The notes under the pieces were generated by a model. It had not been told where the DNA came from. It did not search any database and worked only from the letters and a program-made list of their open reading frames with translations. Below, one piece after another: positions 47,279-48,037 of a DNA stretch of 64,000 nt; positions within the stretch are counted from its first letter, which is position 1, and each line of letters begins with the position of its first letter. The translations under genes and the position numbers were made by a program. This stretch comes from Escherichia coli O157:H7 (GTDB taxonomy: Bacteria > Pseudomonadota > Gammaproteobacteria > Enterobacterales > Enterobacteriaceae): assembly GCF_013167455.1 (NCBI RefSeq), contig NZ_CP038328.1, one strand, 5' to 3'.

Positions 47279-47757
47279 CAGTGGCGTATATTGCCATAGG
47301 CAGCAATCTGGCCTCTCCGCTGGAGCAGGTCAATGCTGCCCTGAAAGCATTAGGCGATATCCCTGAAAGCCACATTCTTACCGTTTCTTCGTTTTACCGC
47401 ACCCCACCGCTGGGGCCGCAAGATCAACCCGATTACTTAAACGCAGCCGTGGCGCTGGAAACAACACTTGCGCCTGAAGAATTACTTAATCACACACAGC
47501 AAATAGAGTTGCAGCAAGGTCGCGTTCGTAAAGCAGAACGCTGGGGACCGCGCACACTCGATCTTGATATCATGTTGTTTGGTAATGAAACCATTAATAC
47601 CGAACGACTCACCGTCCCGCATTACGATATGAAGAATCGCGGCTTTATGCTGTGGCCGCTGTTTGAGATTGCCCCGGAACTCGTGTTTCCTGATGGGGAG
47701 ACATTACGTGAAATACTCACTTCGCTAGCAGTACTACAACCTGCCATCTGGTATTAG
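47275..47757 (+). CDS. folK: 2-amino-4-hydroxy-6-hydroxymethyldihydropteridine pyrophosphokinase
   Basis: 160-aa ORF overlapping pcnB stop (ATGA); HPPK family; C-terminal residues differ from the K-12 protein as I recall it. Confidence 0.92.
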
Positions 47758-48037
47758 CTGTATTATTTTATTTTCTTATCTTACTCCTCACTTCCCCTCT
47801 TACAGATTAAATATACTTAATTTACATTTTAGTTTTTTTTAATTAATTCATGAAATAGCACTTCATGCAAATAGATTAGGCATTTTTTGTTTAAAAAACC
47901 TAGAATAGCAACAATTCAATACACCACGTAAATATATTCACACCCGTGATAATTCACCCCTATTACATCCTCCAAAAACTTTGAGTAATATCCGCTCGCA
48001 ATATTAATTTCATATAATTTTTGTAAGGATGCATGTA
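47758..48037 (+). promoter_or_regulatory. AT-rich upstream region of the yad fimbrial operon
   Basis: 280 bp of strongly AT-rich sequence with A/T tracts directly upstream of the first fimbrial gene; typical of H-NS-silenced fimbrial promoters. Confidence 0.55.

Follow-up and report, generated by a model that had tools for sequence, protein, structure and literature searches.

The 64,000-nucleotide (nt) window analyzed here, the whole stretch taken from contig NZ_CP038328.1 of the Escherichia coli O157:H7 assembly GCF_013167455.1, is of the O157:H7 type and carries folK, the gene of the folate enzyme HPPK, between pcnB and a fimbrial gene cluster that is followed by panB (Table 1). The start of folK overlaps the 3′ end of pcnB, including its stop codon, by 4 nt. 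Pfam family HPPK (PF01288) matches residues 5-134 of FolK with E=7e-39, and the protein matches the solved E. coli HPPK with E=1e-94. The gene is found once per genome. Many O157:H7 genomes carry it at 100% identity, and at an identity of at least 99% it occurs in 325 of the 5,426 complete genomes of E. coli. All seven open reading frames (ORFs) between folK and panB are fimbrial and follow the gene order of K-12 yadN-yadV-htrE-yadMLKC. The Pfam domain Fimbrial is detected in three of the four minor-subunit and adhesin ORFs, the minor subunit at 52665-53270 being the one without a Pfam match. By gene content and order, the region 48038-55002 is a chaperone-usher fimbrial operon at the yad locus. 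It shares the chromosomal position and the seven-gene architecture of the known E. coli Yad fimbriae. Unlike these features, its sequence departs strongly from the K-12 allele, with nucleotide identities of 35-70% over the whole operon and 35-55% over the minor subunit and adhesin genes (52102..55002). The comparison with K-12 shows that folK itself is a chimeric gene, which is K-12-like in its first 62 codons and deeply divergent from codon 63 onwards.

Table 1. Features of the pcnB-folK-yad-panB interval in the window (dS and dN, synonymous and nonsynonymous divergence from K-12; GC, guanine plus cytosine content)
Feature	Position	Strand	Basis
pcnB, backbone-type	45881..47278	+	dS 0.024, dN 0; same protein accession in K-12 and O157
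folK (HPPK), chimeric gene, 160 amino acids	47275..47757	+	ORF; Pfam HPPK; match to solved E. coli HPPK
folK codons 1-62, backbone-type	47275..47462	+	0 of 188 nt differ from K-12
folK codons 63-142, donor-type	47463..47700	+	37 of 238 nt differ from K-12; dS 1.08, dN 0.031
FolK tail, residues 143-160 and stop codon, variable	47701..47757	+	linked to the yad allele; dN 0.74
AT-rich folK-yad intergenic region, about 280 bp	47758..48037		GC profile, 20-38% GC
Major fimbrial subunit, O157-type yad operon	48038..48634	+	Pfam Fimbrial; RefSeq 'fimbrial protein', yadN in Sakai
Fimbrial chaperone	48721..49446	+	Pfam PapD_N, PapD_C
Outer-membrane usher	49488..52088	+	Pfam Usher, PapC_N, PapC_C
Three minor subunits	52102-52650, 52665-53270, 53291-53881	+	ORFs, RefSeq annotation
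Two-domain tip adhesin	53893-55002	+	ORF, RefSeq annotation
panB, right flank	55137..55931	+	55137-55286 donor-type, mosaic decay beyond

The original prediction, made from the sequence of the window, held that FolK of 160 residues ends differently from the 159-residue K-12 protein, that only scattered substitutions are found before this end, and that an allele exchange has its breakpoint in the last 20 or so codons. A comparison with K-12 strain W3110 confirms the different end. The W3110 protein (L001 12001..12480) has 159 residues and terminates in ...EMLRQILHTRAFDKLNKW (in a longer stretch, ...FPDGEMLRQILHTRAFDKLNKW), as the original prediction had it. Residues 1-142 of the two proteins are 98% identical, and the only substitutions in this part are S64T, R76Q and V106T. 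Residues 143-158 carry 11 substitutions, and the additional residue Tyr160 follows. Tyr160 results from a changed stop codon, since the O157-type gene reads TAT and then TAG where every 159-residue allele has TAA. All columns that are invariant across 32 Enterobacteriaceae FolK sequences are retained in O157-type FolK, and the sole near-invariant column from which it departs is that of R76Q. Gln76 (window 47500-47502) is found in O157-type FolK only; the residue is Arg in 79 of 79 Enterobacteriaceae species representatives and in all other sampled E. coli alleles. By its sequence, O157 FolK is a member of the HPPK enzyme family that keeps the conserved catalytic core.

The predicted concentration of differences in the last codons holds for amino acids but not for nucleotides. 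The 64 nucleotide differences between O157 and K-12 folK spare nt 1-188 entirely; nt 189-426 hold 37 of them and nt 427-480 the other 27, a strongly non-uniform distribution and not a divergence spread evenly along the gene. The identical part extends upstream into pcnB. From 47052 to 47462, covering the pcnB 3′ end and folK codons 1-62, 0 of 411 nt differ from K-12 (dS 0, dN 0), and the nearest difference upstream of folK is at position 47051. In a neighbor-joining tree of folK nt 1-186, O157 and K-12 are paired at 100% bootstrap. Within codons 63-142 all but three of the changed codons are synonymous, and the tract 47463-47700 differs from every other E. coli allele class at 28-41 positions. 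In codons 143-159 (47701-47754) 27 of 54 nt differ, with a dS of about 1.5 and a dN of 0.74. The maximum chi-square breakpoint is located after 47462 (chi2 153) and is matched in 0 of 1000 permutations, which bears out the proposal of an allele-exchange breakpoint inside the folK coding sequence. Its position is not the proposed one. The junction between K-12-like and O157-type sequence is at about 47463 (codon 63), approximately 240 bases upstream of the last 20 codons. This breakpoint can be read directly from the alignment. Since the donor tract differs from K-12 at about 15% of its sites, the crossover itself probably took place close upstream of 47463, at a distance of a few tens of bases at most.

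A crossover of the O157 genome within the last ~20 folK codons (about 47700), with ordinary backbone carrying scattered substitutions upstream of it, would explain that 11 of 14 substitutions as well as Tyr160 fall in the tail, and a secondary chi-square peak inside the divergent tract is indeed found after 47714. However, this peak reaches a chi2 of 34 as against 153 for the main one, and codons 63-142 already hold 37 mostly synonymous differences with a dS of 1.08. The two steps are also different in kind. At codon 63 the proportion of synonymous differences (pS) jumps from 0 to 0.57. At the tail boundary pS goes from 0.57 to 0.65 while dN rises 24-fold, from 0.03 to 0.74. Because dN rises and pS hardly moves, the step near codon 143 marks the end of amino-acid constraint and not a crossover. 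In addition, the whole donor tract is present in strains A16 and L7_ETEC and in the 325 genomes. A tail crossover is thus very unlikely for the O157 gene.

Of all parts of FolK, the tail is under the least constraint. Mean column entropy over 79 Enterobacteriaceae species is 2.08 in residues 141-150 and 1.28 in residues 151-160, and every other 10-residue bin has at most 1.04. Only Leu144, Leu148, Leu151, Pro156 and Trp159 are conserved among the tail positions, and the O157-type protein has five of these five. The low constraint is observed directly in these columns. In the AlphaFold model of FolK (mean predicted local distance difference test score, pLDDT, 79; 83-88 over residues 141-160) a short helix is formed by residues 144-151, and the three conserved leucines would share one face of it. 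A short amphipathic helix and a terminal Trp make up the last 17 residues, in which about five positions are constrained. Divergence is visible at the protein level only in this tail because purifying selection on the HPPK domain masks it through residue 142. The solved E. coli HPPK is the same enzyme as O157 FolK but differs from it in the tail. All listed entries of wild-type E. coli HPPK (1HKA, 1EQ0, 1Q0N and many others) have the K-12-type C-terminus, and the O157-type tail is without a solved structure. A frame-shift or a paralogue as the origin of the tail is ruled out, as all tails have the same length, the terminal Trp and the same frame and folK is single-copy. Gene conversion from a folK paralogue is excluded by the same single copy. 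It could also be supposed that no recombination occurred and that an unconstrained tail evolved fast in situ while the remaining folK was inherited vertically. In its favor, the tail is the most variable part across the 79 species, and neither the length of 159 residues (76 of 79 proteins) nor the terminal Trp has been lost. This explanation fails on the dS of 1.08 in codons 63-142 beside a dS of 0 in codons 1-62 and of 0.024 in pcnB.

Comparison of strains shows that the tail is linked to the fimbrial allele. At least five FolK tail types exist in E. coli, namely the O157-type with its optional Tyr, ...LHTRAFDKL(N/S)KW, ...LTILNTSQPVIW, ...LKINKFHELNKW and ...LQAKGFNELDKW. In a sample of 15 strains every tail type pairs with one particular downstream fimbrial allele. 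The O157-type tail is present in nine of nine strains with the O157-type major subunit and in none of the six with other yad alleles. Five of the nine strains had been selected by a fimbrial-gene match alone; a sixth, 23CRST011, was selected because its junction alignment stopped short of the tail. Among the 5,426 complete genomes the tail is detected in 436 by blastn and the major-subunit gene in 420. A megablast search with the 63-nt tail gave 377 genomes, an undercount caused by its 28-nt word size, and is superseded by the blastn number. Co-segregation of the C-terminal variant with the yad allele, which the original prediction proposed as a check, is therefore seen directly in the strains and agrees with the genome counts. 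The flank allele tracks the central fimbrial allele rather than the genome background. This is most evident for APEC O1 (avian pathogenic E. coli) and A3, which have tail and operon in common. The two differ at 28 positions in folK nt 1-188 and at none in the tail, a combination on which fast evolution of the tail in situ fails again.

The left edge of the O157-type haplotype is not at the same place in all strains. It is located at about 47463 in O157, A16 and L7_ETEC, at about 47643-47667 in GF3-3, and at about 47682-47710 in AHM8C212, C325/O145 and THO-010/23CRST011. Strain USMARC-51688 has one difference from K-12 in the folK middle segment and 32 of 54 in the tail. Crossovers near codons 136-145 are thus real in other lineages, in C325/O145, 23CRST011/THO-010 and AHM8C212 as well as in USMARC-51688 against K-12, and they count in favor of a crossover in the last codons. 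For O157 the same alignments put the switch at codon 63. These lineage-specific breakpoints are direct observations, and such block-wise mosaics with differing switch points are also not accounted for by a tail that evolves in situ.

The right flank mirrors the left one. Compared with K-12, the dS of panB is 1.08 in the first 150 nt (55137-55286) and then 0.30, 0.06, 0.17 and 0.46, while panC has a dS of 0.24 and eight other genes of the neighborhood have 0-0.14. The dS of 1.08 is reached on both sides and falls away from the operon in mosaic fashion, a symmetry that is found directly in the data. Evolution of the tail in situ, for which the panB value has no explanation, hardly comes into consideration on this evidence.

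The relatives of the family show which tail is the changed one. Directly adjoining folK and panB genes are found in Citrobacter, Salmonella, Klebsiella, Enterobacter and most other genera, and the tail in these genera reads ...L(T/S)LRxxLxxLAAEKPAxW. Compared with a Citrobacter tail, the O157-type tail reaches a nucleotide identity of up to 70.6%. In the K-12 tail, Arg151 and Leu156 take the place of the conserved Leu151 and Pro156, which are kept in 69 of 79 and 78 of 79 species, respectively, and the nucleotide identity of the K-12 tail to the tails of genera without the operon is 23-49%, which is the noise level. The GC content is 31% in the K-12 tail and 18-37% in the K-12-family tails, as against 53-57% in species without the operon. 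The O157-type tail hence resembles the tails of Salmonella and Citrobacter, and that of K-12 is the derived form. This reverses the polarity implied by the original prediction.

Integrase-borne islands insert at tRNA or ssrA genes. By a similar event, a fimbrial island could have been inserted site-specifically into the folK 3′ end and have supplied a new C-terminus. Such an insertion would be in line with the AT-rich DNA after folK (20-38% GC) and with K-12-family tails of 18-37% GC that lack Leu151 and Pro156; these AT-rich tails fit an old tail replacement in the K-12 family. That most other genera have folK directly before panB points the same way. But it is the O157-type tail that resembles those of species without the island, with up to 70.6% nucleotide identity in Citrobacter and all five conserved positions. 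The deep divergence moreover runs 240 nt into the conserved domain and also into panB, and this calls for homologous exchange. Between folK and panB, where the seven ORFs are all fimbrial, there is neither an integrase nor any other mobility gene, and an att-like direct repeat of the folK 3′ end (47600-47760) was not found within 47600-55200, including the panB side. Insertion of an island into O157 folK is accordingly judged highly improbable.

How old is the O157-type flank? Inside E. coli the pS of pcnB ranges over 0.03-0.14; in the comparison with E. whittamii and E. albertii it reaches 0.30-0.36, and with Citrobacter koseri 0.58. For folK codons 63-142, pS between O157 and every other E. 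coli allele is 0.53-0.61, and among the other E. coli alleles it is 0.28-0.52. The O157 folK flank is as diverged as different genera are, and the 3′ two-thirds of folK are a high-diversity zone in E. coli. The depth of this divergence is directly measured. We searched for a donor with FolK relatives and their 10-kb flanks, one genome per species (GTDB representatives), of which the best 80 loci were kept; E. fergusonii, E. marmotae and E. ruysiae are absent from these best 80. Within this set the nucleotide identity of the tract 47463-47700 is highest with E. whittamii (87.4%), followed by K-12 (84.5%), E. albertii (81.9%) and other genera (72-79%). The folK gene of E. whittamii (L011 10001-10480) is a mosaic in the opposite sense, with 83.5% identity to E. 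coli in nt 1-188 and 94.1% to K-12 in nt 189-426. A 524-bp low-coverage contig (L015) in the Terrisporobacter mayombei assembly aligns with K-12 folK, the identity being 96.8% over nt 1-188 and 100% over both nt 189-426 and the covered portion of the tail; this contig almost certainly stems from contamination with E. coli.

Among the sampled loci, Escherichia, Pseudocitrobacter and one Citrobacter have a yad-like operon that separates folK from panB. The operon of E. albertii comes nearest to the O157-type one in this sample, with amino acid identities of 86% for the major subunit, 90% for the chaperone and 90% for the usher. A K-12 HtrE query gives about 46-61% amino acid identity with the loci of other species, and the O157 and K-12 ushers score similarly against the distant ones. 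Because divergence between the fimbrial allele classes is saturated, dN/dS between them would be uninformative.

Taken together, the folK-yad-panB interval of O157 is very probably the product of allelic replacement by homologous recombination, in which a divergent yad operon came in with its own flanking DNA. An anciently diverged chaperone-usher allele would have entered the yad locus along with its flanks. The left crossover would lie just upstream of 47463, leaving folK codons 1-62 as backbone and codons 63-160 as donor sequence, and the right crossover would lie in panB, no more than a few hundred bases from its start. Divergence of the donor tract is close to synonymous saturation, which purifying selection on the HPPK domain conceals through residue 142. 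Diversifying or frequency-dependent selection on the fimbriae may keep the allele classes, and the flanks in folK and panB would hitchhike with them.

Several points weigh against this replacement. The crossover is strictly bracketed only to 47052-47462, as the sequence is identical there. No donor species was found among the best 80 species-representative loci, the top match being the 87.4% of E. whittamii. In the neighbor-joining tree, nt 187-426 of O157 folK form a long Escherichia-affiliated branch, basal to other E. coli and E. whittamii, with a bootstrap of 41-47%. The linkage of tail and operon across the species we infer from the matching counts and the 15-strain sample and not from a genome-by-genome table, and the part played by selection we also infer. 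As for the source of the allele, an old polymorphism within Escherichia and an import from an unsampled lineage would both be compatible with the data.

One further reading is tentative and in our view rather doubtful, namely that the yad allele classes, the last 17 folK codons and the folK and panB flanks form a balanced polymorphism at least as old as the genus Escherichia. It is suggested by a synonymous depth as great as the one that separates E. coli from Citrobacter, and by the presence of related classes in E. albertii, E. whittamii and Pseudocitrobacter.

The folK-yad spacer presumably holds the regulatory region of the operon. No terminator-like site was found in the spacer, and a single weak promoter-like match (47877-47906) was exceeded in number by those in shuffled sequence. 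No Rfam family matched near the folK-yad locus. At an indel at 47770-47780, a 59-bp stretch is absent in O157, GF3-3 and A16 and present in C325, 23CRST011 and THO-010. The stretch is bordered by the 10-bp direct repeat TTATTTTCTT, so that its absence looks like a repeat-mediated deletion. Two homopolymers are variable among O157-type strains, T7/T8 near 47840 and A5-A7 near 47895. The yad locus is decaying in some strains: in USMARC-51688 (L007 3800-6100) insertions of IS1 and IS3 truncate the major subunit gene, and in THO-010 (L094 3951-5597) an internal stop makes the usher gene a pseudogene.

Elsewhere in the window, one 200-nt bin of gluQRS (45400-45600) is 90% identical to K-12 and hrpB (39000-42000) is 93-97% identical, the neighboring bins being 98-100% in both cases. 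These patches look like other small recombinant segments. The panC-rpnC spacer (56800-57010) has about 220 bp that are absent from K-12 and without an Rfam match; they contain ...CCCCAGGAGCTTACATAAGTAAGTGACTGGGGTTAGCG..., which we take to be an ERIC/IRU intergenic repeat. Rfam matches above the gathering score are all far from folK, namely the small RNA CssrA (15049-15158, minus strand), the t44 RNA (15997-16083, minus strand) and the HtrA 5′ untranslated region thermometer (24241-24286, minus strand).

In E. coli and Salmonella, gnd hitch-hikes with the O-antigen (rfb) cluster, and fim and other surface-antigen loci have mosaic flanks. Such hitch-hiking and mosaic flanks were reportedly described by Nelson and Selander in 1994 and in later work. 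Like gnd, folK is a housekeeping gene beside a hypervariable surface locus and has very divergent, mosaic alleles linked to the antigen, with intragenic crossovers at lineage-specific positions and a divergence far above the genome background. Unlike gnd/rfb, the locus is yad between folK and panB, the scar is short, taking in about 300 nt on the folK side and about 150-300 nt on the panB side with a dS of about 1.1, and the unconstrained C-terminal 17 codons of folK act as part of the variable cassette, which gives the enzyme several alternative C-termini within E. coli.

Yad fimbriae are described as a core-associated locus with variable alleles and recombination between phylogroups (Wurpel et al. 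2013, PMC3559732; PMC13245861, 2026). The yad locus of enterohaemorrhagic E. coli is expressed from its native promoter (PMC11287998). With an 80% threshold for HtrE, phylogroup E has been scored 'Yad-negative' (PMC13245861), and we ascribe this score to the divergence of the O157-type operon. In the literature searched, no link between folK, or the FolK C-terminus, and yad variation was found. Mosaic flanks of hypervariable loci are well known as a phenomenon; the folK/yad case was not found described.

The interval is a clean and well-bounded case of how the housekeeping genes to either side of a variable adhesin locus become chimeric when its allele is replaced. The current understanding of recombination or of folate biosynthesis is unchanged by it. 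It illustrates that a comparison at the protein level can put a crossover in the wrong place, since deep synonymous divergence is hidden there by purifying selection. For the same locus, usher identity thresholds derived from K-12 or B2 strains miss the divergent phylogroup E operon, and folK and panB are unsafe as markers for phylogeny or typing of E. coli. The C-terminus described in structural work on E. coli HPPK is atypical of the family. If the balanced polymorphism were true, an essential folate enzyme would have several interchangeable C-termini within one species, and the C-terminus of K-12 HPPK would be derived and AT-rich, island DNA having possibly overwritten the older one.
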